This document shows, piece after piece, positions 10,701-59,360 of a stretch of 64,000 bases of DNA. The translations under genes were made by a program, and so were the position numbers. The stretch is from a phage. The notes beneath the pieces are model-generated. The model did no database searches. It saw only the letters and a program-made list of their open reading frames with translations, and had not been told where the DNA came from. Every line of letters starts with the position of its first letter. The stretch's first letter is position 1. The stretch lies in sequence record PZ445530.1; one strand, written 5' to 3'.

Positions 10701-13368
10701 GACTGCACTGAGATCAAACATGGATGGGACATCCATGTCCATGCAAATTCCGGTAACAAACGGATACAAACGTGTTGTGATGATCATTAAGTGCGACCTG
10801 ATAGGTAAACAAGTTCTTGCAGAAAACGGGACATCCACACATCCTTTTGAGATCGCTCTGCACTATCAGTTTGCTGACTCACCTTTTGCAGGGGATAAGA
10901 GAATATCTGATACAGACGCACAGCGTTGTAAGAAAGTATTGTTGGGTGCAGGTTGGTGGTGGTATGAGTTTGATTTAACAGACAAATTCACCGACACGTC
11001 TAAAGTTGTAACAGGACTTCGTCTAGACCTTGGCGAGAACATGCACAAAGCTGTTTGTGATGGCACCTATGGTGACCCTACAATATACCTAAAATATGTT
11101 TCTTTTGAGCATCCGGAAGATGTTGTCTACGGTCCAAAACTGAGATTGTTTGGCAGCTGGATTGCAAAAGATAGGGTAGGCATGGGTAAGAAGGTAAGAG
11201 GGCTCTTGGTTGATGCAGGAACAGAAGACATGCTGGTTAATGCAGTGTGGCCTGAATTACCTGGGACTCAGTGGGACAACTCAGCCAAATCTATAAACTG
11301 GTTTAACATTCATAGGGCCATGTGGACCACTAACTGCTACTTGTGGAGAGAGCTTAACGATCAGGCCTTTGGATTCAGCGATGGTAGAAGGATGGCGATC
11401 ATTTGCTGGACAACACTGCAAAGATGTTATGACCATGACTATGAGATTGGGGGCAGGGCATGGAAAAATATCAGGGATAGAATCATAACCAATTTTGCAG
11501 ACGACAACGGTGGTGGAGCACATAACTTTGGCACAAGCCGACTCATCCATCTGAACGGATCCTCAGCCTACAAGAAAGAAGGTTACTCTGGGTCTATGAT
11601 CGAGTGGGGTCTGGTGAAAGATGCTCGCGTATTGATGGGCCAGCAACTTGCTGCCGCAATAGGTCCCAGCGCAGTGCAGTCGGTTAAACCAGCGTGGTTC
11701 GATATTCCATTGTGGTCACCCGGAACACCGGGAACTGCTGCAATCAACCCTACCACTGGGGATCTAGAAATCTCCGGGGAGGACTTGAAGCAGGTCGGTG
11801 GTTGGGACAAAACAGGGTACCAGGTTCAGTGGTGGAGAGCTGATGGATCTTTAGCTGCTGATGAGTTTGTTAAGGACAATTTCTACACTATGTCCTCTGC
11901 AAAAGCACAGCAATTATTTGGTCAGGCAACTCCGTCAACGATCACCATGTCTATGTGCTGTAAAGACAACAGGACTGGAGCTTTGGGGCCAAGGGTTGCT
12001 AAAGTTTTCTCAGGTATTAAATGGAATCTACCTGTCCAAAGTATTTCATGGAAGCAAATAGGTGATAACAAGCTGCTGGTTACCCCTGCCTGTCAGTTCA
12101 ACGCAACTCTTAACGTTGATCCTGCTGTTGCGGCAAACTCAGCTAAAGCTTCTGACTTCTCTGTGTCTAACACTGCTATGGCAGATGTGAGGAAGATTGA
12201 CACACTGAACGCCAGAATTACCTGTAAAAACACTTATGGCACATTCCAAATCATCAACAACTTCACAGATGCTGATTCTAAGGTAGTAAGGACAGCAAGC
12301 CAGACTCTGAGTTTAGGGACTCTGGCCTATGCGGCCCTGATCACCGAACAGTCGGCAACACTCCAAGGAGGCGGTGTAGGCAAGTCCATTGCAACACCTG
12401 TGTGGAAGCCAAATGAGTGGGTTGTGTTTGATTTGACTGTGGACTTCTCCAGCGATAATAGCTGGACATGGGTAAGGAATTGTTTGTCACAATTGATGGG
12501 CGGTCCAAGCTCCGTTAGTGATAGTCACGACTCTACTGACCCGAGTGTGTTCCAGGTAGGTAAAACTCACCCAGAGACTGGAGAAACGTTGCCTGACAGG
12601 AAGTATGCGTTGGTTTGCATCTCTTACGGGAAGGCAGATGTCACATTCTCAGGGACACACACTTATAACGGAACTTACAACTTCTCAAGGAAGTATAGTC
12701 TCAAAGCAGGGAACATTATAGACGAGGTCGGTGTGCTTTATAATCCGGGCAACGGCATAGGGATTGTGGGCGGTAAACTGCAGATGCAGGAACCTTCTAT
12801 CACCCCTTCCAACGTATCCGGGATTAGAAAGACTTGGGAAAGTAGTGATACCAACATTGCAACAGTGGATGCCACCACAGGGCTGGTAACATTTAAAGCT
12901 ACTGGGAATGTCACCATAAAGTTTGTAGTTAGAGATGATGCAGGCCGCAAAACGTCTTCAACATCGTTTACTGTCAGACAGATGGCACCTCAGTGGTTTA
13001 TTTGGGAAGGAAATCCTCTTGACGGGGCTTACCCTAGACCTGCAGGAACGTCCAATATGAGGGTCTTTACCGGTCCGGTCATGAACAATCCGACCACAAC
13101 CACCAACCCTACATTTTTTGGTGCTTACATACCTGAAATTATTGGCCTACCAAGGAACCAGATACAACTGCTTTTCGGAGCAGGTGTTGATGGTCTAGCC
13201 ACTTTTGGGTACAGTGACAACATTGATGCAGCCAGAAGCTCGGGTTGGATTGGATTTAAGTTTCAGTGGAACCCTGGTGGTAGAACATTAGGTGTTGCAA
13301 GCATAGGTGTTATGCTACCTGGTAACCAGCAATACCATCTCGAAGCTTATACAAACTTCCCTAGTTAA
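7741..13368 (+). CDS. large virion protein (1875 aa), probable tail/host-interaction protein with Ig-like domain near C-terminus
   Basis: Single uninterrupted 5.6 kb ORF with RBS; C-terminal segment (TWESSDTNIATVDATTGLVTFKATGNVTIKFVVRDDAGRKTSSTSFTV) resembles bacterial Ig-like (Big_2) domains. Confidence 0.65.
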   Translation: MLPIPLLKLGRHFLDKRGGIKELAVLSYPIDNSDGTSNTVSYVNSLAILFDDGQLNITGYNKFGECRTGDRNPINYPSETAWNVDHVWRADRAFVIRTFDNQFFYIGCTAGLIGSTAAGGNDVCVNEWTPLPEQIVKGLHLDTHPERLIEVMGGINNTVWVIAEAEGTGILKLYGSGNNTYGSLHVDKNQHATPVKIGETSENPETGPWKNPSINCEVHDNSVIFGGPRGFWIAGYDFLRNNSRNDLVWPPVQITRNDLRGIPADEEWKGFMCGPNGAIIATQRMHKPNDQQLVNVFYGQDVWGDDTWRSLNITYTHEVIMARGYGTSGIFFNNGTKQYRGFSRNLCNDIGAQSANNSPRANFIHYQALATAKYVEQRLPVSWTESVYFQGIHREGFLGTFTVVNGKLWWSGIPRGSFAGSNNLFGGRLNSQGFTEIPENWYKNVPVDSWGIEDIFDVNGVSNVSNIYIGDTVKMKLKPQPEGATFIIDKIELVNAAGTVVTDANYQFSTNWNHGGANEVVVTQYNRNINRRGLYSIKITYHDKHGTGRTYTTRTLNWNTIVPAYPSNGKWHTVGRNKQFHVNDTVYFGLNGTQPAVEGDTSYMVRLHRMDAGSVTYDVTQEIYDQRRATYDNIVKTQALWEFNPNGKGGKMLQVNEQNGTSLTVHEHPDPWPDPGKPHPRARTLKIVSHDAGYFGIRWEATVRYVDGTTNNIGITLGGTSEDNSLKIAYTPRGISIDSMDVVRNGYGDVNVKVTLGEHLGGERIIMYAFDHDPRTNGTYANQAWSYLINAPEPNTKEFYYGMKRDVCKKTGTHDWIAICVKDERTAWDEPVNRWFIGIPTRSDKYVAEYIVCMGGTNLNMCWNEDVNKYSDYDYMRDYSCNLWFNQTTGYPPRQARVNPAIFTDTQVFLTKQANEVQTFKNKYDPNKWFYNCYGAFFWGPGELPGGGSCLNEATYASDYIMGQVKKYKIIPGPETLGNAVDPYIIMTALRSNMDGTSMSMQIPVTNGYKRVVMIIKCDLIGKQVLAENGTSTHPFEIALHYQFADSPFAGDKRISDTDAQRCKKVLLGAGWWWYEFDLTDKFTDTSKVVTGLRLDLGENMHKAVCDGTYGDPTIYLKYVSFEHPEDVVYGPKLRLFGSWIAKDRVGMGKKVRGLLVDAGTEDMLVNAVWPELPGTQWDNSAKSINWFNIHRAMWTTNCYLWRELNDQAFGFSDGRRMAIICWTTLQRCYDHDYEIGGRAWKNIRDRIITNFADDNGGGAHNFGTSRLIHLNGSSAYKKEGYSGSMIEWGLVKDARVLMGQQLAAAIGPSAVQSVKPAWFDIPLWSPGTPGTAAINPTTGDLEISGEDLKQVGGWDKTGYQVQWWRADGSLAADEFVKDNFYTMSSAKAQQLFGQATPSTITMSMCCKDNRTGALGPRVAKVFSGIKWNLPVQSISWKQIGDNKLLVTPACQFNATLNVDPAVAANSAKASDFSVSNTAMADVRKIDTLNARITCKNTYGTFQIINNFTDADSKVVRTASQTLSLGTLAYAALITEQSATLQGGGVGKSIATPVWKPNEWVVFDLTVDFSSDNSWTWVRNCLSQLMGGPSSVSDSHDSTDPSVFQVGKTHPETGETLPDRKYALVCISYGKADVTFSGTHTYNGTYNFSRKYSLKAGNIIDEVGVLYNPGNGIGIVGGKLQMQEPSITPSNVSGIRKTWESSDTNIATVDATTGLVTFKATGNVTIKFVVRDDAGRKTSSTSFTVRQMAPQWFIWEGNPLDGAYPRPAGTSNMRVFTGPVMNNPTTTTNPTFFGAYIPEIIGLPRNQIQLLFGAGVDGLATFGYSDNIDAARSSGWIGFKFQWNPGGRTLGVASIGVMLPGNQQYHLEAYTNFPS

Positions 13369-44814: not shown

Positions 44815-45262
44815 TACTGTAGAGGGAGATTTAATCTCCCTTTTTAAGAGCGGTGCTGGTCACCTGATCCACGGTTGTAACTGCTTCCACACAATGGGCA
44901 AGGGGATAGCAAAACAGATTTCCCGTGAGTTCCCTCAAGCATTGGCAGCTGACAAAGAGACTAGATATGGTTGCCTAAGTAAACTGGGTGCGTTCTCCCG
45001 ATGGGAGCACTTATCTCCGAGAGGTATTGTCTACGGAATCAATCTGTATACTCAGTTCTACCCAGGACCTAATGCTGAATATTTCTCAATTCTGAAAGGC
45101 TTTGAGCTAGTCAATGAGGTATTCAGTAGATCGACTTTACCATTCTACATCCCTAAGATCGGGTGCGGCATAGGCGGTTTGAAGTGGGAGCACGTAGAGG
45201 ACGTTATTAACCTTGCCACTTTTGATATGGATATTATCGTGGTAGACTACAAAAAGTGTTGA
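44804..45262 (+). CDS. macrodomain protein (TARG1/OARD1/DarG-like ADP-ribosyl hydrolase)
   Basis: GTG start after GAGGAG overlapping upstream stop; GDLISLF, HGCNCFHTMGKGIA and PKIGCGIGGLKWEHV parallel TARG1 blocks GDLF, HCISEDCRMGAGIA, PRIGCGLDRLQWENV (recalled from memory). Confidence 0.7.
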   Translation: MIIDTVEGDLISLFKSGAGHLIHGCNCFHTMGKGIAKQISREFPQALAADKETRYGCLSKLGAFSRWEHLSPRGIVYGINLYTQFYPGPNAEYFSILKGFELVNEVFSRSTLPFYIPKIGCGIGGLKWEHVEDVINLATFDMDIIVVDYKKC

Positions 45263-45315
45263 CAGCTGGTTTTTGGGATGGTGTAGTCACCACAACGATT
45301 GAGATAGGGAGCACT

Positions 45316-45486
45316 ATGGAGACTAAAATCTTAATTCTAGCTGTGATAGATACAACCGAAGGGGCTGTGTTCGAATCTGCAGGAGGGTATTTCTACCTAC
45401 CCTACGGAAAAAGAACTGCTGAACCAGGTAAAGATTCAATCATCAAAGTGTTCCCGTGTGCTTTCTGGCTGGAGATTTTGGTATAA
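45316..45486 (+). CDS. small hypothetical protein (56 aa)
   Basis: ATG after gatagggag; below track size cutoff. Confidence 0.3.
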   Translation: METKILILAVIDTTEGAVFESAGGYFYLPYGKRTAEPGKDSIIKVFPCAFWLEILV

Positions 45487-45512
45487 GATTGCAGAGGATT
45501 TGGGAGAGAATT

Positions 45513-45707
45513 ATGAGAAACAAGAGAGAGCTTTACTCTGGCGAGTGGATAAACGATCAACAGGTTGGAGAGGTAACCTGCTTCCGGTGTTTTACTCGGT
45601 ACAATCTTAAAACTGCACCAAAAAGTATTCCAAAGACTGATGGTTATTACATAAAAGAACCTCATTGCCCGAAATGTAAATGCCGATTATACTGGAGCAA
45701 CCTGTAA
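45513..45707 (+). CDS. small zinc-ribbon protein (64 aa)
   Basis: ATG after tgggagag; CFRC...CPKCKC Cys pairs. Confidence 0.4.
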   Translation: MRNKRELYSGEWINDQQVGEVTCFRCFTRYNLKTAPKSIPKTDGYYIKEPHCPKCKCRLYWSNL

Positions 45708-45711
45708 AAGA

Positions 45712-45739
45712 TTGACATCTGAAAACTACAGTGTATAAT
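45712..45739 (+). promoter_or_regulatory. sigma70-like promoter
   Basis: TTGACA - 16 bp - TATAAT upstream of gene 45771. Confidence 0.5.
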
Positions 45740-45770
45740 ATACGCACAGACTAACAGAGAGCGATGTATT

Positions 45771-45962
45771 ATGGTAATTTTTAACCGGGATGGTATCATA
45801 GTTAGACAGCACCCCTTCCTTGAATACTATCAAATTGAGCAATGGTGCTACGGGGATTGCAGTCACTCCTATGGGCAAAGTTGGGGATATCGCACAGTTT
45901 TTGAATCAACAGACCTTGACAAAGTAAGACAGAAAGTTTTAGAACTTATTAACAACAAGTGA
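45771..45962 (+). CDS. small hypothetical protein (63 aa)
   Basis: ORF in track downstream of promoter. Confidence 0.4.
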   Translation: MVIFNRDGIIVRQHPFLEYYQIEQWCYGDCSHSYGQSWGYRTVFESTDLDKVRQKVLELINNK

Positions 45963-45971
45963 GTATGATAC

Positions 45972-46304
45972 ATGGTAACATTAGAAAGACGTAAAGCTAT
46001 CGCCGCCACACTGGCAGACATCTTTTGGGATTGCAACTTAAAAGATACCCGAAATTGTGGCGCATCTGTAGATGTATTATTCCCACGGCCCACCATTGTT
46101 GCAATGGGAAACCTGTTAAACGTAGTGTACGGAGCATGGGACAAAGAAGGTGGATTCTATATCTGGCAACCTGACTACGGAGCCTGGAAAGAGGTAAGGG
46201 GTGCGGATGACTTTGGGCCTACAGTTGCTAAGATGGATGGCTGGGAAATTTATGTTGGAAACGACATGAAGCTGAAAGGCGAGATTGTTTACTGGTTACC
46301 TTAA
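45972..46304 (+). CDS. hypothetical protein (110 aa)
   Basis: ORF in track. Confidence 0.45.
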   Translation: MVTLERRKAIAATLADIFWDCNLKDTRNCGASVDVLFPRPTIVAMGNLLNVVYGAWDKEGGFYIWQPDYGAWKEVRGADDFGPTVAKMDGWEIYVGNDMKLKGEIVYWLP

Positions 46305-46324
46305 GAAAGTGCAGGAGATAAAGT

Positions 46325-46570
46325 ATGAACAAAGGGTGGACATTTGTAGACGGCGTTAAAAACATGCCTCTAGGAAAGTATATCGTAGCCATGGCTGATG
46401 AGGATGGCAATGTAGATTTCGGAGCTTGCGAGGTTGTTCTTGCAGGATCTGGTAACTATGTGAGTAAAACCGGGATAATTAACGGTCAGTTCTACTTTGA
46501 TCACAACCCTGTTGTAGCGTATATGACTATGCCAGAGTTCAAGTTCCCAAAGGAGGGTGCAGATGTTTAA
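46325..46570 (+). CDS. hypothetical protein (81 aa)
   Basis: RBS caggagat. Confidence 0.45.
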   Translation: MNKGWTFVDGVKNMPLGKYIVAMADEDGNVDFGACEVVLAGSGNYVSKTGIINGQFYFDHNPVVAYMTMPEFKFPKEGADV

Positions 46571-46760
46571 GCTTAAATCTGCATGGAACATCGCTGTGGG
46601 GGACGAGATCCGTATCCCAGGTGGAAAGACCATTATGAAGATATCTCGTATTGAGTACGAAGGTGACCGTGTATTCCACATCCTCGCAGAAGATGGTCGA
46701 GAAATTTATATACAGGCAGGTTCTCACATTTATATCCGTAAGAAAGGGGACGACAAATGA
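46563..46760 (+). CDS. small hypothetical protein (65 aa)
   Basis: ATG after aaggaggg. Confidence 0.4.
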   Translation: MFKLKSAWNIAVGDEIRIPGGKTIMKISRIEYEGDRVFHILAEDGREIYIQAGSHIYIRKKGDDK

Positions 46761-47086
46761 CAGAGATCATCATTTCAACTGCAGGGTATGTGTTCCTGAC
46801 AATCATTGCACTGACTATTTTGGTGACAGTGTATGGGTTTGTTATCCTTCCTATCCTTGAGACATTTAGTTTGTGTCGGTGTTGGAGAAAAGCTTACGGT
46901 CCACAACCATGGAAGGACTGGCCCCACCTGGTGCGCTTAGCGTTCTCTTATGCTTACGATCACTCCAGTAGTGCATGCATAACCGGATACCACGCCCACA
47001 ACTGGAGCTGGGAAGGATTGAGGAAATGGAATGTTACAAAGACCATACCTCTACGCATGTACAAACCTAAAAACAAAGACAGCTGA
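46757..47086 (+). CDS. membrane protein (109 aa)
   Basis: RBS aaagggga; N-terminal hydrophobic stretch AGYVFLTIIALTILVTVYGFVILPIL. Confidence 0.45.
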   Translation: MTEIIISTAGYVFLTIIALTILVTVYGFVILPILETFSLCRCWRKAYGPQPWKDWPHLVRLAFSYAYDHSSSACITGYHAHNWSWEGLRKWNVTKTIPLRMYKPKNKDS

Positions 47087-47397
47087 TACTTGAAAATTCC
47101 TGGCATATCAAGTGTAAGGGGGATTTCTAAAATGGATTTCCTCCTTTTGATATTTCACCGGGCTGGATATTTTAAAATTCTTAGAAAATCAGAAAATGGA
47201 TCGAAAACTAAAATGGATTTTTCAGAGTAGGCGCGACAAGCTGAATAACTCATCCTATCGTTTGCACCATATTCCAGGCCACCATTATAGATTTTCCACA
47301 CATGCTAACCTCCCTCTACTAGAACTTCCTCCACTTGCCCTTAACCTTCTATGGTAACAATCTAACCACTATCTTGAAGTTGCGGTGCAGCTTTCCA

Positions 47398-47481
47398 AGT
47401 ACTCGATCTGTTTTTCATTTCATGGCTTGGATTTTCTGAAAATTTTTCTCGATAAATTTCTCAGTACTCGATCTGTTTTTC
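47398..47481. repeat. tandem direct repeat (19-nt perfect core AGTACTCGATCTGTTTTTC, 2 copies) within ORF-free region
   Basis: Core at 47398-47416 and 47463-47481, each followed by GGATTTTCTG(A/G)AAAT-like sequence; AAATGGATTT motif recurs 47129-47575. Confidence 0.6.
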
Positions 47482-47690
47482 GTTTTCTGAATCGGATTTT
47501 CTGGAAATCGTTCCGGATCTCGACCTGAAATTTTTGGGGACGAAATCGATTTTTCGTTTTCAGAAATGGATTTTTAAAATTTCTATATGGGAATATTTTA
47601 TGGGATACTGTTTTATAGGAAATTGTTACGGAGGGTAATTAGCATGCTAATTAAATTTATTAAATGCGAGGAGTTCTCATTTAGAATTTT

Positions 47691-47900
47691 GAATGATAAT
47701 CATTCTCGTTTGCAGAATAACGGGCAGGCCCGGTGATTGTCTCCCGGCCCCTGTTGCCCCGGCTTGTTATTATAGTATCACACAGGACAAAGAAAGCAAG
47801 GATTTTTTGCATAAATTTTTAAATGATAATGATAACCGTTCTCATTTTATGCAGCGCCCATCCCCGGTGGTTGTCTTCCCCGTCACCGGTGCCTGCCGTC
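47691..47900. repeat. pair of imperfect ~65-bp direct repeats (AATGATAAT...TGCAG...CCCGGTG(A/G)TTGTCT)
   Basis: Shared ordered blocks at 47691-47760 and 47820-47890. Confidence 0.4.
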
Positions 47901-48114
47901 CTTTCGATAGGTATATTGTGCCACCTGGCGGGGCCGCTGTCAACACTTTTCAAAAAATTTTTCTAACCTGATGCGCTAACCGCTGCAACCTGGCGGGGCC
48001 AGCCTGGCAGGACCTAACTGACCAGGTAGGAGAGAATGAAGGCTTGTAAACCTGGTGGGCCTATGCTATAGGACAGGTAACAATTGAAGAGGAGGTACAA
48101 AAATAAAAGGTAAT

Positions 48115-48273
48115 ATGATCCCCCTGGAAAATGTAGCTATTAATGACGCTGAGGCTATCGCCCTGGTTGAAAAGGCCATGGCGGGAGCGTTGGAACATAA
48201 AGAAGAGTACGAAAAAATGATGGTTAACCTGGCAGGGCGGCGGCAGGTGGATTCTATCATAAAAATAATTTAA
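48115..48273 (+). CDS. small hypothetical protein (52 aa)
   Basis: ATG-initiated ORF below track cutoff, ends just before promoter at 48282; weak RBS. Confidence 0.3.
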   Translation: MIPLENVAINDAEAIALVEKAMAGALEHKEEYEKMMVNLAGRRQVDSIIKII

Positions 48274-48281
48274 AATAATTG

Positions 48282-48309
48282 TTGACAACCGGGGGAGTCC
48301 TGCTATTCT
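48282..48309 (+). promoter_or_regulatory. early-type sigma70-like promoter (cassette 1)
   Basis: TTGACA - 16 bp - TATTCT; CA-rich leader and purine-rich SD before ATG 48362. Confidence 0.5.
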
Positions 48310-48361
48310 TACCCTACAAGGTGAACAACACCGCACTAACTAGTAAAGAGGATAAAAAATC

Positions 48362-48559
48362 ATGAACGCATACGGAATCAAAGTACGTCGCAACACTCGC
48401 CAGGTGGTCACCGATCAAGTGGTTTGCCTGGTGGATGTAACCATCAACAACGGGCAAGGCCTTTATAAATTTCGTCGCGGTCATAGCTATACCCTGCAAC
48501 AGCTTAATCGTTGCGCCCTGACAAAAGGTCAGATCAATCACTGGTTTAATAAAAAATAA
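48362..48559 (+). CDS. small hypothetical protein (65 aa)
   Basis: ATG downstream of cassette promoter and SD gaggataaaa. Confidence 0.5.
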   Translation: MNAYGIKVRRNTRQVVTDQVVCLVDVTINNGQGLYKFRRGHSYTLQQLNRCALTKGQINHWFNKK

Positions 48560-48562
48560 GTA

Positions 48563-48591
48563 TTGACATACGCCCCGACACAAAATATACT
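48563..48591 (+). promoter_or_regulatory. early-type sigma70-like promoter (cassette 2)
   Basis: TTGACA - 17 bp - TATACT; CACAAAAGA leader; SD agaggataaaa. Confidence 0.55.
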
Positions 48592-48623
48592 GAAATCACA
48601 AAAGACACTAAGAGGATAAAATC

Positions 48624-49022
48624 ATGAAAACCACAACCTTTAATTTTGACAATGCCGACTTCTCTTTTTCTGATGTCAAGAACTGCCGCCGTGATCGTGG
48701 ATTTTACAAGGCTTATAATCTGGTTGGCCTGGACGATGATAATAATTTGCACGAAGTAGCGGAGATCCGGTACTATGCCGCCGCCAGCGGTAACACTAAC
48801 TACTGCGTTTTTTGGATACACGACAACAAGAACAATAAGTACGGTTATACTGGCGGCAAGGCGAGCGGTCACGGTTATGATAAAGCTAACGCAGCACTTG
48901 AGAGCGCATTAAATGCTATGGGGATCACTGCCAACGGCTGGATCTACGAAGAAGAGTTTTTGTCGGCACTTGCTGACCACCTAGGCTATAAAAAGCACAT
49001 TGTAACATGTGCCCACGAATAA
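48624..49022 (+). CDS. hypothetical protein (132 aa)
   Basis: ATG downstream of cassette. Confidence 0.5.
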   Translation: MKTTTFNFDNADFSFSDVKNCRRDRGFYKAYNLVGLDDDNNLHEVAEIRYYAAASGNTNYCVFWIHDNKNNKYGYTGGKASGHGYDKANAALESALNAMGITANGWIYEEEFLSALADHLGYKKHIVTCAHE

Positions 49023-49029
49023 AAAATTA

Positions 49030-49057
49030 TTGACACGCTGCAAAATTCAAGTAAACT
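49030..49057 (+). promoter_or_regulatory. early-type sigma70-like promoter (cassette 3) followed by 5' hairpin
   Basis: TTGACA - 16 bp - TAAACT; hairpin GGCGGG-GATGTTT-CCCGCC at 49068-49086; CACAAAGGAAAAAG leader. Confidence 0.55.
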
Positions 49058-49105
49058 AGACACAAAAGGCGGGGATGTTTCCCGCCAGCACAAAGGAAAA
49101 AGATC

Positions 49106-49510
49106 ATGAATAAGAACGTACGCCGCATCATGAACGAACTGGCAAACGATGAAAAAATTATTGACATGCATTTATTCAACATTTGCCGCCGTTGTGTAAC
49201 ATATAACAACCGCGCCGCAAAAGCGCGTGAGATGAACGCAAAAGGCACCTTAAAGCCATTCCAGGTGGTGGTAAAGGCCATTAAAGATGTAACTAATACG
49301 GCAAACCAGGTACAGGGGAACACCAACGAGAGTACCAATATTGATCCGGCTTACATCATGAAACGGATCCGGACCTGCAAGAACAAAGAGCAAGTGTATA
49401 ATATCATAGACTGGTTGGATTCTATGGGCGATGTGGTTTACAATAGGTTTTCTGCAGCTATCGAGATCCAGCTTGACAGGTTGGACGGTAAAGTACTGAA
49501 AACTTACTAA
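49106..49510 (+). CDS. hypothetical protein (134 aa)
   Basis: ATG downstream of cassette. Confidence 0.5.
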   Translation: MNKNVRRIMNELANDEKIIDMHLFNICRRCVTYNNRAAKAREMNAKGTLKPFQVVVKAIKDVTNTANQVQGNTNESTNIDPAYIMKRIRTCKNKEQVYNIIDWLDSMGDVVYNRFSAAIEIQLDRLDGKVLKTY

Positions 49511-49512
49511 GT

Positions 49513-49558
49513 TTATTTTTAGATGGCCTTGACTTCAGGGCCATCAATAAAGTAAACT
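49513..49558 (+). promoter_or_regulatory. palindrome-embedded promoter element, copy 1
   Basis: TTATTTTTA-GATGGCC-TTGACT-TCAG-GGCCATC-...-TAAACT: -35 inside loop of 7-bp inverted repeat, 18-bp spacer to -10. Confidence 0.5.
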
Positions 49559-49591
49559 AATCTCAACTAAGCGAAAAAAGGGGGCTTTAAG

Positions 49592-49711
49592 ATGAGCACT
49601 ACACGCCAATACACAAAGGTAACTATTATCGTTTGCGTTGTCGGTTACATCCTGGCGCAAATGTTAATGAGTAGCGCTAACAGTTTTGCAAAATTTTTCT
49701 TAAATTTTTAA
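49592..49711 (+). CDS. small hydrophobic protein (39 aa)
   Basis: ATG after aaagggggc; hydrophobic core VTIIVCVVGYILAQML; below track cutoff. Confidence 0.35.
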   Translation: MSTTRQYTKVTIIVCVVGYILAQMLMSSANSFAKFFLNF

Positions 49712-49712
49712 T

Positions 49713-49739
49713 TGACAAACTAACTTAGATCGATATACT
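49713..49739 (+). promoter_or_regulatory. early-type sigma70-like promoter (cassette 4) followed by 5' hairpin
   Basis: TTGACA - 15/16 bp - TATACT; hairpin GGGAA-AAC-TTCCC; CACACAAAAGGAGAAAA leader. Confidence 0.5.
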
Positions 49740-49790
49740 TAAACACGTAAACGGGAAAACTTCCCAGAGCACACAAAAGGAGAAAACACC

Positions 49791-50132
49791 ATGACTACTA
49801 TGACCGCCGCAGAAAAAGCTATGCAGATCGCCGCGCTGAAAAAACAGATCGCAGACCTTGAGAACAAGATCGACAACTTTGAAATCGACGAGGACAAGTA
49901 CGACGAAAACTATGATGAATGGTTAGACGAGATCTACGGCGAAATTATGATCGGAAACATTTCTTTTCTTCCGTCGCGTATCCTCAAGGAGCTAGATCCT
50001 ATCGCTTACCGCTGCGGATTTAGCGACTACATCGACAGCCTGGATATTGAGGAAGATGAAGAATACCAGGAACTACAGACAGAGTTAGAAGAAGCAAAAG
50101 AAGAGCTTGCGGAGCTGGAAGAAAACGAGTAA
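49791..50132 (+). CDS. acidic coiled-coil-like protein (113 aa)
   Basis: ATG downstream of cassette; Glu/Asp-rich. Confidence 0.5.
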   Translation: MTTMTAAEKAMQIAALKKQIADLENKIDNFEIDEDKYDENYDEWLDEIYGEIMIGNISFLPSRILKELDPIAYRCGFSDYIDSLDIEEDEEYQELQTELEEAKEELAELEENE

Positions 50133-55098: not shown

Positions 55099-55154
55099 AC
55101 CTGGCGGGGCCGAAAAGGCCCCCCAATTATGAAAATAAAGAGAGGCAAATCATC

Positions 55155-56925: not shown

Positions 56926-57529
56926 CTGCTCTTCTCCTACCATAAACGGCCCTACCTGGCAAGTGGAATAATTGACTAGCCATCAATCCCACATACTGTA
57001 CAAATATACATGGAAAATAACTATTGCATAATTTTTCATTGTGTGGTAGCAAGTCCATTTTTACCCGTTTTCTCTCCCAAAAGTGCACGTAATGCCGCTA
57101 TTGCACAAATTTTAACCTGATGCACATCTCCAATATCTTGTCAACAACTAAAAATCTTTATAAGTCATACACTTACACAGCATCGAAAGCGTGTTCTACG
57201 CGAAAAATCGAGTATAACTATAGCCGCCAGATCTCAGAATTCACGTACGCACGCCATTCTATAGCCTGCAAAGTATTTATTCCAACCACAGAATAACGGA
57301 ATAGTCAATACCTGCATAAAATAATTATTCGTGCAAACTGCATAACATAAATCAGCTCAGGTGTCAACATTTTTCGTAAACAGTCCGAAATTATAACGAT
57401 GAGTTATCATAAACAGAGAAATCTTTAGTCGTCTAATGTTTACTGTACATTACTATACTGACTGGAATCATTAGATGACTAAGAGAAAGATAAGAAATAA
57501 TTAATAATGTAATTATTTTACCTGTAACA

Positions 57530-57791
57530 ATAAGGCAACTATGCAAACGAATGGCATGGCGCGACGGAGTCGCGACATAATATAAAAGCAGTAACCATCA
57601 CCCCCGTGATAGTTTGTCTGCAAACTATTAATCAGATCATAGTTGCCTTGTATTTAGTTAATCATGACATAACAAGCAAGGCAACTATAGATCTGCTAAT
57701 AGTTGCCCTGCTTTTATATTATGTCATGCTAATTATAATCAGTGCGATTATTGTCATGTATAATTATTGTCATGCAAACGAATGGCATGGC
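57530..57791. repeat. repeat cluster: 20-nt perfect direct repeat ATGCAAACGAATGGCATGGC (57541-57560, 57772-57791) and four alternating AGTTGCC/GGCAACT copies
   Basis: Direct repeat 231 bp apart; AGTTGCC-family at about 57534, 57641, 57680, 57701; palindrome CGCGAC-GGA-GTCGCG at 57562-57576. Confidence 0.6.
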
Positions 57792-57800
57792 TGATTATCG

Positions 57801-57890
57801 GTGTGTAAACAGTCAATCATGTAAATGGTTAGCATGTGAACAATCAGGAATGTAAACAATCCAGTGTGTAAACTAATAGGTGTGTAAAAG
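57801..57890. repeat. iteron-like array: six copies of TGTAAAC-like heptamer at 15-16 bp spacing
   Basis: TGTAAAC 57804, TGTAAAT 57820, TGTGAAC 57836, TGTAAAC 57851, TGTAAAC 57867, TGTAAAA 57883. Confidence 0.6.
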
Positions 57891-58439
57891 TGTCATGTTG
57901 TGTCAGTTAGGTCACATTATGTCAGACAAGTTTTTCTCCTCTTTGTCAAGTGCTGCATGAAAAATTTACAAACTGGTATGGTAGCATTTTTGCGGCCCTG
58001 TTTACATTCAGTAATGTATGTATAATCCTTGTTGTGTGGGCGTTTAGACGTCTAGACGGTTGGAAGTCCACAGGTCAATATCTAATCTATCGGCTGCTAA
58101 CTATATCCCACACAAATAGCAAGAAATATGATTGTTATATGCGTAAACTGTAACTCATGTTATCAATCCCTGTATGGATCGCCAGTGGTGCGCATAATGG
58201 GTATTATGTTAAATTGCCCGTAATGATAACTATTCTCACAATGATAGGTATTCTCATTCATCCACATAAAATAGGTTGCAAATGTTGTGCCACTGTGTGA
58301 ACGGCCTGGCCTATTAATTTGCCTCACTGCCTTGATATTTGAGAATTGTTATAAGAATGAGAAGTATTCCCATTTCGTCCGCCTGGCAGCACTCCTGTAG
58401 GTCAGGTCAAAATCGTGGTAGAATTGGGCCTGTTCAGAT

Positions 58440-58700
58440 ATTTCTGGCTGACTCTTCAGGTCTGTGTGGGAAAAGCCAACCTCTCCGGCGGGGCAGGGGG
58501 TCATGACGGGAAAATTGCAGGTCAATTAAAAATTTACGTGGTGTATGAAGCGCTCTTCAGGTAAGGCATGTATTATGGGATGAAACCCGCTTCAGGCAAT
58601 GATATTTGTGGGTGTGATATTTGCTGGAAAGCCAGATATGACGGGACTCCCGGCGGGGATGGGGTAGTACAGACAGGGAAAATATGAGAATGTAGTTGGG
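58440..58700. repeat. degenerate ~70-bp direct repeats (CTTCAGG...GTGGG...GAAA(A)GCCA...CTCC(C)GGCGGGG...ATGACGGGA) in ORF-free region
   Basis: Ordered shared blocks about 58446-58515 and 58570-58680; no ORF of 60 codons or more on either strand 58154-58776. Confidence 0.45.
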
Positions 58701-59360
58701 GAAATTGATCAGACAGGTAGAGTATGGAATATGTTACAAGTATGTTAAATATGGAGGTTGAATATCTGTAGGATTTGTGTGTAAAATCAAAGACTTAAGG
58801 GGTGTTGTGGTATTTTCTATAAATAATTCAAGTTTAATAGGCAATATTTGTCTCTATCCGTTTTGTGTGGTAAACAGATTCAGATTAGATTGGTTTACAA
58901 GTGTATACATAATATACAAATTAAAGATACAAGAAACCCCCCTCCCCCCTTCGGCTACCATTCACCTTTTCCTCTGACTGGTACTTAAACACTTATTCAG
59001 ACTCTTCAGGTTATCACCCATATATCATATGGCAGTGACTGGTGTCCTCCGGCCCCTCTTTCGTCACCCGTCCGCTTCGCCATGCTAATGCCATAGCCAA
59101 TGGTTCGGTTGTTCACCCTGTTCACTCAGGTGTATCTCCATACCCCTTCAAACCGAAGAGAACAGAAAACCCGAATTACTCGGTAAAAGAAAAGAGAAGA
59201 ACTTAATTTTATCAGGATAGGCAAGAATGTCAAGGCATGACTGCTCACTAAACAAGCAAACAGTCATGTGTGGAAGGTAAGTGATTGTGGTGGTGGGAAA
59301 TTTAGTTGAAAGATGTGTTATAGGTGCTTCCAGCACTTTAGCCGGGCAGCTAATTGTGTG

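Follow-up and report, generated by a model that had tools for sequence, protein, structure and literature searches.

On the genome map of phage rV5 there is a box labelled 'non-coding', drawn without open reading frames (ORFs) and left without comment (Kropinski et al. 2013, PMC3606486). No promoter or terminator was predicted inside it, no function was given to it, and the genome as a whole was taken to be circularly permuted (PMC3606486). Here we take apart what is very probably the same locus in a relative of rV5: positions 47087-48110 (hereafter the region) of a 64,000-nt stretch of phage DNA, sequence record PZ445530.1 (hereafter the window). The correspondence is provided by rV5 promoter P195A (116444..116472, minus strand), whose counterpart in the window, at 48282, adjoins the region on its right side. 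The source phage is a Vequintavirus, one of the rV5-like myoviruses with genomes of ~137 kb; positions 46700-48400 match 122 phage records at 80-99% identity, nearly all of them Vequintavirus, and the closest to the region itself is phage ECML-10 (99.2% identity). The region is neither a genome end, nor a recognisable structured RNA, nor a gene evolving as coding sequence. From its ordered repeats, palindromes and promoters we propose, tentatively and with somewhat less than even confidence, that it may be a transcription-activated replication origin in which the host iron regulator Fur plays an accessory part.

Repeats in non-coding DNA commonly mark the origins of phages and satellites (PMC7145576). 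An initial annotation of the window had described ~1 kb of repeat-bearing DNA here and listed a replication origin, a packaging site, a genome terminus and a structured non-coding RNA (ncRNA) as the usual owners of such architecture; of these the origin is plausible though unproven, being the best fit to the anatomy (iterons, AT-rich stretch, promoters and conservation above that of the flanks), the packaging site and the terminus are contradicted, and the ncRNA is unsupported. With iteron-type and transcription-activated origins, as they are known from lambda, T7 and T4, the region shares regular tandem direct repeats and A/T tracts, with strong predicted promoters directed at a stretch that is moderately AT-rich. 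It differs from them in that its units are long (65-78 bp) and composite rather than iterons of 18-22 bp, its promoters are of the host sigma-70 type, and neither an initiator nor a skew signal is recognised in this region.

Anatomy of the region

From left to right, the region and its right-hand border are made up of the following parts.

47116..47148, plus strand: terminator-like hairpin, AAGGGGGA ... TCCTCCTT, followed by a T-run
47149..47225, plus strand: conserved R1/R2 block, with R1 (GATATTT) at 47149 and 47166, R2 (AAATGGATTT) at 47211 and a variant of R2 at 47195
47226..47394, no strand: variable spacer, 64-69% identical in divergent Vequintavirus (neighbouring segments 87-100%)
47396..47600, plus strand: three tandem iteron units (R3), with periods of 65 and 74 nt
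47575..47660, no strand: AT-rich stretch between iterons and cassettes, 83-100% identical within the genus
47664..47722, no strand: Fur-box-like array 1, TTGAATGATAATCATTCTCGTTTGCAGAAT plus a degenerate upstream palindrome
47723..47766, minus strand: GC-rich leader 1, with invariant GGTGATTGTCTCCC at 47732-47745
47772..47799, minus strand: predicted leftward promoter P_L1 (TTGCTT, 16-nt spacer, TACTAT, extended -10 TG), read from the sequence
47820..47846, no strand: Fur-box-like array 2, GATAATGATAACCGTTCTC at 47825, 16/19 against the consensus
47850..47908, minus strand: GC-rich leader 2, with GGTGGTTGTCTTCC at 47866-47879; 96-98% identical within the genus
47915..47943, minus strand: predicted leftward promoter P_L2 (TTGACA, 17-nt spacer, CACAAT, TG), 10/12 in the promoter scan
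47923..48061, plus strand: GC-rich ACCTGGCGGGGCC repeats at 47923 and 47988, with variant ACCTGGTGGGCC at 48050
48115..48273, plus strand: first small early gene (52 aa; phrog_21957, E = 1.4e-29), just outside the region

Each iteron unit begins GTACTCGATCnGTTTTTC and runs in the same order from a core, (A)GTACTCGATCTGTTTTTC, through a GGATTTT element to an A/T tract. The repeat finder places the array at 47389-47574, in two families (D1 and D2) whose units are 74-79% identical. The 19-nt repeat AGTACTCGATCTGTTTTTC, recorded initially as a perfect tandem repeat at 47398 and 47463, is present at both positions and corresponds to the unit cores, its copies lying 65 nt apart rather than head to tail. 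The array thus provides the regularly spaced tandem direct repeats, at least three in number, by which an iteron origin is recognised. Across 47400-47700 the GC content (200-nt windows) is 0.31-0.33 against ~0.43 for the whole window, a modest drop that is smaller in some genera, and the GC skew is locally inverted (-0.27 to -0.32), which agrees with leftward use of the region's DNA.

Two tandem cassettes (47664-47812 and 47813-47950) close the region, each composed of a Fur-box-like palindrome array, a GC-rich segment of ~45-55 nt and a minus-strand promoter. They had been noticed initially as imperfect direct repeats of ~65 bp at 47691 and 47820; these are real and extend, with gaps, to ~140 nt (47672-47812 and 47806-47950), and because they align only with gaps they were overlooked by the ungapped repeat finder. 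The Fur-box-like arrays and the leftward promoters are parts beyond that earlier reading. In the window the pattern GGTGNTTGTCTYCC occurs at 47732 and 47866 only, and GGTGnTTGTCT is limited to the same two copies; this leader core is invariant among genera and the bases around it vary. The second Vequintavirus cassette is a paralogue of the first, with its closest relative in module 1 of Serratia phage Kashira. Transcription is predicted to start near 47765 from P_L1, a segment 93-100% identical within the genus, and near 47908 from P_L2.

At the opposite end, the DNA around the terminator-like hairpin (47085-47165) folds to -25 kcal/mol (z = -2.8). In FV3 the stem is AGGAGGA/TCCTCCT, with a G.U pair turned into A-U. 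The hairpin probably ends the upstream plus-strand operon. The R1/R2 block that follows is 84-100% identical within the genus. Its R2 motif, AAATGGATTT, had been called recurrent, and with good reason: two further exact copies stand outside the block, at 47130 and 47564, and together with 47211 these are all the copies in the window, where 0.03 would be expected per 700-nt stretch. All three AAATGGWTTT copies of the window likewise fall inside the region.

On the matter of coding content the initial description holds, with no ORF of at least 60 aa on either strand in 47087-47692; the first ORF after the gap is 47693..47971 (plus strand, 92 aa), and two minus-strand ORFs follow from 48061. Annotation of the stretch is inconsistent among records, with four small ORFs between the flanking genes in MaxTheCat, one in ECML-10 and none in others. 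The repeats noted initially are borne out and look functional, save that of three exact ACCTGGCGGGGCC copies claimed for the region only two (47923, which forms the spacer of P_L2, and 47988) lie in it; the third is outside, at 55099. A copy with two mismatches is found at 48227, and at two mismatches or fewer there are five matches against 0.64 expected. In FV3 and SYGMH1 a piece of 48 nt is missing precisely between two ACCTGG repeats (47999-48050), as if these had recombined, the identity of their ACCTGGCGGGGCC part being 63%, and slur16 diverges completely right of ~48010; from the missing 48 nt and the divergence of slur16 it appears that the ACCTGGCGGGGCC part tolerates loss. The outlying third copy forms a hairpin at 55099-55125, GGCGGGGCC-GAAAA-GGCCCCCC, between two early genes, where it may be a terminator or processing site. 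At 48104, five of seven aligned relatives have an ATG after GAGGAGG; this window has ATA, so that its first early ORF can start only at 48115.

Conservation across two subfamilies

The initial annotation had listed poor conservation in relatives among the findings that would speak against it, and the region is conserved. A sensitive search returned 249 phage records that match at least part of it. Within Vequintavirus all modules are 83-100% identical, as well conserved as the flanking ORFs or better, with the exception of the spacer at 47226-47394 (~65%). Outside Vequintavirus, BLAST aligns only a core of ~75-160 nt (~47651-47808), at 70-88% identity. The core is carried by Vequintavirus, Seunavirus, Mydovirus, Certrevirus, Henunavirus, Phapecoctavirus and Justusliebigvirus, seven named genera spanning the two subfamilies Vequintavirinae and Stephanstirmvirinae, as well as by an unclassified Serratia phage (Vequintavirinae). 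In every case it sits in a wide gap that carries no annotation and keeps its position in the gene order. Upstream of this gap, other genera encode proteins that lack homologues in this window and of which only a part are similar to one another.

Upstream of the core a cluster of two to six GATATT copies was found in 13/13 representatives, at a distance of 505-690 bp (about 540), and the DNA between cluster and core is unrelated in the two subfamilies. A spacing of ~540 bp held fixed across both subfamilies points to a nucleoprotein complex of defined size. The iterons themselves are conserved in position and, in part, in sequence. In the window the motif CTCGAYC stands at -296, -231 and -179 relative to the core; three copies, 63-78 bp apart, occupy comparable positions in Seunavirus, Mydovirus, the unclassified Serratia phage Kashira and two of three Certrevirus genomes, and such trios, at about -300 to -120 from the core, are found in most Vequintavirinae representatives. 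POP15 has five CTCGAYC cores with irregular spacing. An A(n)T(n) tract follows each CTCGAYC core by ~45 nt in Seunavirus, Mydovirus and Kashira. Phapecoctavirus and Justusliebigvirus carry other repeats at the iteron position, for example AAAATTATTTAAAGTTTTT.

The leftward promoters recur as well. Under one common rule set, every one of 15 elements scanned has a minus-strand promoter where P_L2 would lie, the -10 ending +217 to +243 from the core. One is present at the P_L1 position (-10 ending at +71 to +76) in 11 of the 15 elements, which span five named genera and two unclassified phages. Their architecture alternates, with a good -35 (TTGCAA-17-TATATT) in some and an extended -10 in others, the pattern expected for a maintained promoter. 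No plus-strand promoter is consistent across the elements scanned. The candidate, TTGAAT-18-CAGAAT, scores 8/12, has CTGAAT as its -10 in Mydovirus and has lost its -35 in Phapecoctavirus. Were it real, it would face P_L1 at a distance of ~55 bp and give a transcript fully complementary to that from P_L1, which recalls the face-to-face promoters and antisense control of coliphage 186 pR/pL and ColE1 RNAI/RNAII; it differs from those systems in its low score, its degeneracy in these two genera and its absence from cassette 2.

In other genera the second promoter is followed by a different, very conserved GC-rich module (~+120 to +215 from the core). In loci L004, L008, L009 and others it reads CTACCGGCGATCCACCTTCC ... 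GCCCCGCCTTTTCGCCGTGGGGTGGCG, preceded by tandem TCTTTACAA TCTTTACAA; in Hena1 a possible loop-to-downstream pairing within it, CCCC:GGGG, becomes CCA:UGG. The module was not found in this window, and it has no fold signal and no ORF. Just upstream of the second leftward promoter, other genera have a real-looking small minus-strand gene (L004 3294-3476, L008 3326-3511, L005 3280-3546, L003 3314-3580 and L014 3281-3547). They belong to two families with no relation to each other, one of 61 aa and one of 88 aa that contains LGWQGGTVHQV. Vequintavirus is without a counterpart, the minus-strand ORF 48066..48260 being unrelated to them.

A pattern scan of viral contigs gave PVP-SE1 only when the pattern was over-strict, and 12 viral and 10 metagenome loci when it was loosened. 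The metagenome contig L039 (OCMD01000840.1) ends within the element at 1-60 with an odd junction, the core ...AACGGGCAGG being fused directly to a reverse-complement iteron (AAACGAAAAACAGATC), which could be an assembly chimera or an inverted rearrangement. Furthermore, 16-17 GenBank records named 'Campylobacter phage' (host C. jejuni) are 93-97% identical to this coliphage region and have genome sizes typical of rV5-like or phAPEC8-like phages; their names probably reflect mislabelling or contaminating coliphages.

Fur-box-like palindromes and the borders of the early-gene block

The palindromes of the cassettes resemble the sites bound by Fur in Escherichia coli. In array 1, two sites with a 6-bp offset match the Fur 19-mer at 15/19 (47689) and 14/19 (47695) positions, 16 nt of the array (ATAATCATTCTCGTTT) are identical to the site at the E. 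coli fhuA promoter, and the whole is nearly invariant in 12 aligned genomes from the seven named genera. The site of array 2, GATAATGATAACCGTTCTC, is the only one in 64 kb with three or fewer mismatches to the Fur consensus (0.00 expected), and its copy in FV3 reaches 17/19. By the same scoring the footprinted sites of E. coli K-12 at fepA-fes, fepD-entS and fepB-entC reach 13-16/19, with 6-bp overlaps too, and fhuA reaches 14/19. The phage palindromes thus follow the 19-bp consensus as 7-1-7 inverted repeats within the range of proven sites, with matches equal to or better than those of E. coli Fur-repressed promoters; pairs at a 6-bp offset occur in most genera examined, and relatives have one to five boxes just upstream of the core (five in SD2). 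Even the TTCTCATTT variant of the phage arrays is found at E. coli fepB. Clusters of Fur sites are known to overlap at offsets of 6 (or 3) bp, and Fur shifted the fhuA promoter in vitro (PMC2189734).

The setting is unlike that of Fur-repressed E. coli promoters. The phage arrays lie ~45-100 nt downstream of the leftward promoters and not clearly over a -35 or -10, they control no iron gene, they belong to a strictly lytic phage and they recur in its terminal repeat. Array 1 overlaps only the weak candidate rightward promoter, and it lies downstream of the strong leftward ones. Conserved look-alikes of Fur-type operators, here and in the terminal repeat, are unexpected in such a phage. We found no report of Fur boxes in rV5-like phages in the literature, and a blastn comparison of the core with E. 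coli genomes gave nothing significant, the query being too short; the fhuA identity was checked directly instead. Phages of Escherichia, Salmonella, Klebsiella, Serratia, Pectobacterium, Cronobacter and Erwinia have this operator in common and differ in their iterons, which suggests a conserved host protein rather than a phage repressor. That lytic rV5-like phages of Enterobacterales have recruited host Fur as a factor on their own DNA may be so, though we hold it to be unlikely on balance.

The region lies at the inner (upstream) edge of a ~10-kb early block, whose small genes are read toward the left genome end, each with its own sigma-70 promoter. The congeneric phage Gotham is packaged from a single defined start and has terminal repeats of 459 bp (PMC7471380). 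In its sequence record the repeat occupies 1-459, and Gotham 1-1491 aligns to window 58383-56893, which puts the terminal repeat at window 57925-58383, ~10 kb right of the region. The region itself is Gotham 10934-11924, ~10.3-11.3 kb from the left end or 7.5-8.2% of 137 kb. In Klebsiella phage KPP-1 a 514-bp terminal repeat follows the homologous element at a distance of ~8.3 kb, again in this direction. The region therefore does not coincide with the physical ends of either phage, and its candidacy as a terminus, terminal repeat or pac site was rejected.

The relaxed palindrome pattern TGAKAA-N3-TTMTCA has eight sites in the window, against ~1 in shuffles. Two are in the region and four inside the terminal repeat, as two pairs 18 bp apart (58224 and 58242, 58340 and 58358). 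The same four stand at 12, 30, 128 and 146 in Gotham virion DNA, within the first 160 bp, the outermost starting 12 nt from the end, and a comparable cluster is found in KPP-1, at its repeat and immediately within it. Pairs of GATATTTG lie just outside the terminal repeat (58601 and 58616), and GATATTT pairs are found on both sides of the early block. With palindromes and GATATTT at both borders, the block is bracketed by the same two kinds of site. The stretch 57400-59330 is a second large non-coding region, of low GC (0.38), on which transcription converges from both sides; it probably contains the physical genome end, and its repeats include CAAACGAATGGCATGGC twice, ATAGTTGCC three times and several GTGTGTAAAC-like copies.

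A possible origin function and its alternatives

The proposed origin would work as an essential cis-acting DNA element of rV5-like phages, in which protein-binding modules stand at fixed mutual distances. A phage protein would bind the iterons and bend the DNA, and host RNA polymerase, starting at P_L2 and P_L1, would transcribe leftward across the Fur arrays and on into the AT-rich and iteron DNA. Such transcription would open the DNA, or prime it, for the T7-type primase-helicase and the family-A DNA polymerase of the phage, and Fur-Fe2+ on the arrays might modulate this transcription or serve as an architectural factor. What the sequence shows is the anatomy, how far it is conserved and which identities the region lacks; protein binding, transcription and origin function are what we infer from it in drawing this scheme. 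The opening or priming of DNA by transcription is familiar from the primary origin of T7 and from oriF of T4. If the iterons co-evolve with an initiator, their difference in sequence between the subfamilies is to be expected. A family-A polymerase and a gp4-type helicase-primase are encoded by rV5 (PMC3606486).

A number of results weigh against this proposal. Our reading of the literature on rV5-like phages found no transcriptome or origin mapping, and no replication data for the group. Ten neighbouring ORFs were scanned against PHROGs and no initiator gene was recognised; nine belong to families of unknown function and one to a phosphatase family with a weak Macro-domain match. GC and AT skew show no sign switch, and the change that is seen is opposite to what a bidirectional origin would add; the authors of the rV5 genome found that skew follows transcription only (PMC3606486). 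The hallmarks of bacterial origins are likewise not enriched: DnaA boxes number 5 in the window, by relaxed matching, against 8.6 expected (the one in the region is not conserved), oriC-type 13-mers 41 against 35, and GATC, counted for a Dam/SeqA cluster, 4 against 3.4. As for Fur, consensus matches are no proof of binding and such matches can fail, as two predicted sites did (PMC2189734); boxes downstream of promoters are an unusual arrangement; and since rV5-like phages grow in iron-replete media, Fur is not an absolute gate. Finally, the second non-coding repeat region (57.4-59.3 kb) is an origin candidate of equal standing.

The other readings fall into those that see a product in the region and those that see a boundary. 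The cassettes could be genes for short leftward ncRNAs made from P_L1 and P_L2, with invariant GAGACAAnCACC as a seed or protein-binding loop. The conserved leftward promoters would suit such genes, as would an invariant core of 11-12 nt between variable GC-rich arms able to pair (CCGG:CCGG, CCUGG:CCGGG, GCG:CGC and GGGG:CCCC, by reading of the alignments) and one apparent compensatory change in Hena1 (GCGGG:CCCGC to GCAGG:CCUGC). The searches for such an RNA argue otherwise. Rfam gave no match at E <=1 in window 45000-50000 or in five related loci, and the tRNA/tmRNA scan found none. Consensus folds of the GC-rich leaders, computed on both strands, reach only -2.8 and -1.5 kcal/mol, with no covariation bonus. 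Minimum free energies of 16 module-1 and 15 module-2 variants, compared with shuffles, and single folds of the leaders give no convincing structure or strand preference (z-scores +0.9 to -2.8, mostly +0.9 to -2.1; summed energies -221 against -220 kcal/mol for the strands), and the mean z of module 2 of other genera is near 0. Stability thus does not exceed that of shuffles, and the compensatory pairs are isolated possibilities only; furthermore, no canonical terminator follows the leaders and no complementary target was found in this window. We regard the ncRNA genes as improbable, and the structured RNA of the initial annotation finds no support in the same results. A link to the pseudo-ToxI of phiTE, considered because GGTGATT is shared and phiTE is a Certrevirus, was dropped: the sequences are unrelated and the pseudo-ToxI locus lies between tRNA and structural genes. 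That the 92-codon ORF 47693..47971 is a real protein gene, with the repeats incidental to it, is hardly credible. It is open in 8/8 aligned Vequintavirus genomes, is annotated in several records and matches phrog_14993 (E = 5e-64), but that family was probably built from these same annotations. Its variable columns are spread 6/8/9 over the three positions of the codon, 17 changes being non-synonymous and 6 synonymous, its start codon lies inside a palindrome with no ribosome-binding site, and a homopolymer run throws its C-terminus out of frame. Other genera conserve the homologous DNA, but with indels that are not multiples of three and without an equivalent ORF. Four further ORFs (47196, 47385 and 47587 on the plus strand, 48066 on the minus) match no PHROG family.

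Among the boundary readings, one makes the region a transcription-control and insulator element without origin function. It would end the upstream operon, its strong opposing promoters and bound proteins would block read-through into the early block, and control of the first early transcripts would fall to host Fur together with a regulator of the phage that is active at the terminal repeat too. The terminator hairpin, leftward promoters that face incoming plus-strand transcription, flanks that are both plus-strand gene blocks of differing composition, and the recurrence of palindromes and GATATTT clusters at the other border of the early block (in or next to the terminal repeat, in the window, Gotham and KPP-1) all speak for it. 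Three phased iteron units of 65-78 bp and a fixed spacing of ~540 bp nevertheless exceed the needs of a boundary, no convincing rightward promoter overlaps the Fur arrays, and each early gene already has a strong promoter of its own; we think this reading unlikely, though it deserves to be kept in mind. A far less likely one is a DNA-entry pause or boundary signal like the injection stop signal of T5, whereby the early-gene left 8% would enter first and entry would pause at the region through host-protein binding. The first-step-transfer boundary of T5 is at 7.9% of its genome, a position matched here, and its Repeat Region 3 is, like our region, at least 1 kb of non-coding DNA rich in palindromes and direct repeats, placed ~8% from the left end at the inner edge of small early genes, better conserved than adjacent ORFs and furnished with host-factor boxes, of which a second repeat region closer to the end has further copies (Davison, bioRxiv 10.1101/866236). 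The resemblance is positional and architectural only. The T5 region sits inside a ~10 kb terminal repeat and has paired DnaA boxes. In the rV5-like phages that repeat measures 459 bp, lies elsewhere and does not include the region, there are no paired DnaA boxes and the boxes are Fur-like. We know of no report of two-step entry among these phages. Least probable of all, although the repeat-rich non-coding architecture and the GATATTT clusters that also occur near the true terminus speak for it, is a terminus, terminal repeat or terminase (pac) site, as the initial annotation had suggested; the single defined packaging start of Gotham, whose repeat maps to window 58383-57925, and the distant repeat of KPP-1 contradict it.

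What the region offers, whichever function it serves, is a parts map in place of an unexplained 'non-coding box': three iteron units, two predicted leftward starts and putative Fur-type operators, the last found again in the terminal repeat. As rV5-like phages are broad-host-range candidates for therapy and biocontrol, an origin at this place, if the region is one, would be a handle for engineering these phages or for building replicons from them. If Fur has indeed been recruited, Fur-Fe2+ might couple origin firing or early transcription to iron status, or might organise or pause entering DNA, as proposed for the DnaA boxes of T5, or Fur might be titrated off host promoters as phage DNA accumulates. 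Should Fur bind, these would be rare lytic phages that wire a host metal sensor into their own DNA transactions, which would bear on phage performance in iron-poor sites such as the gut and infected tissue.

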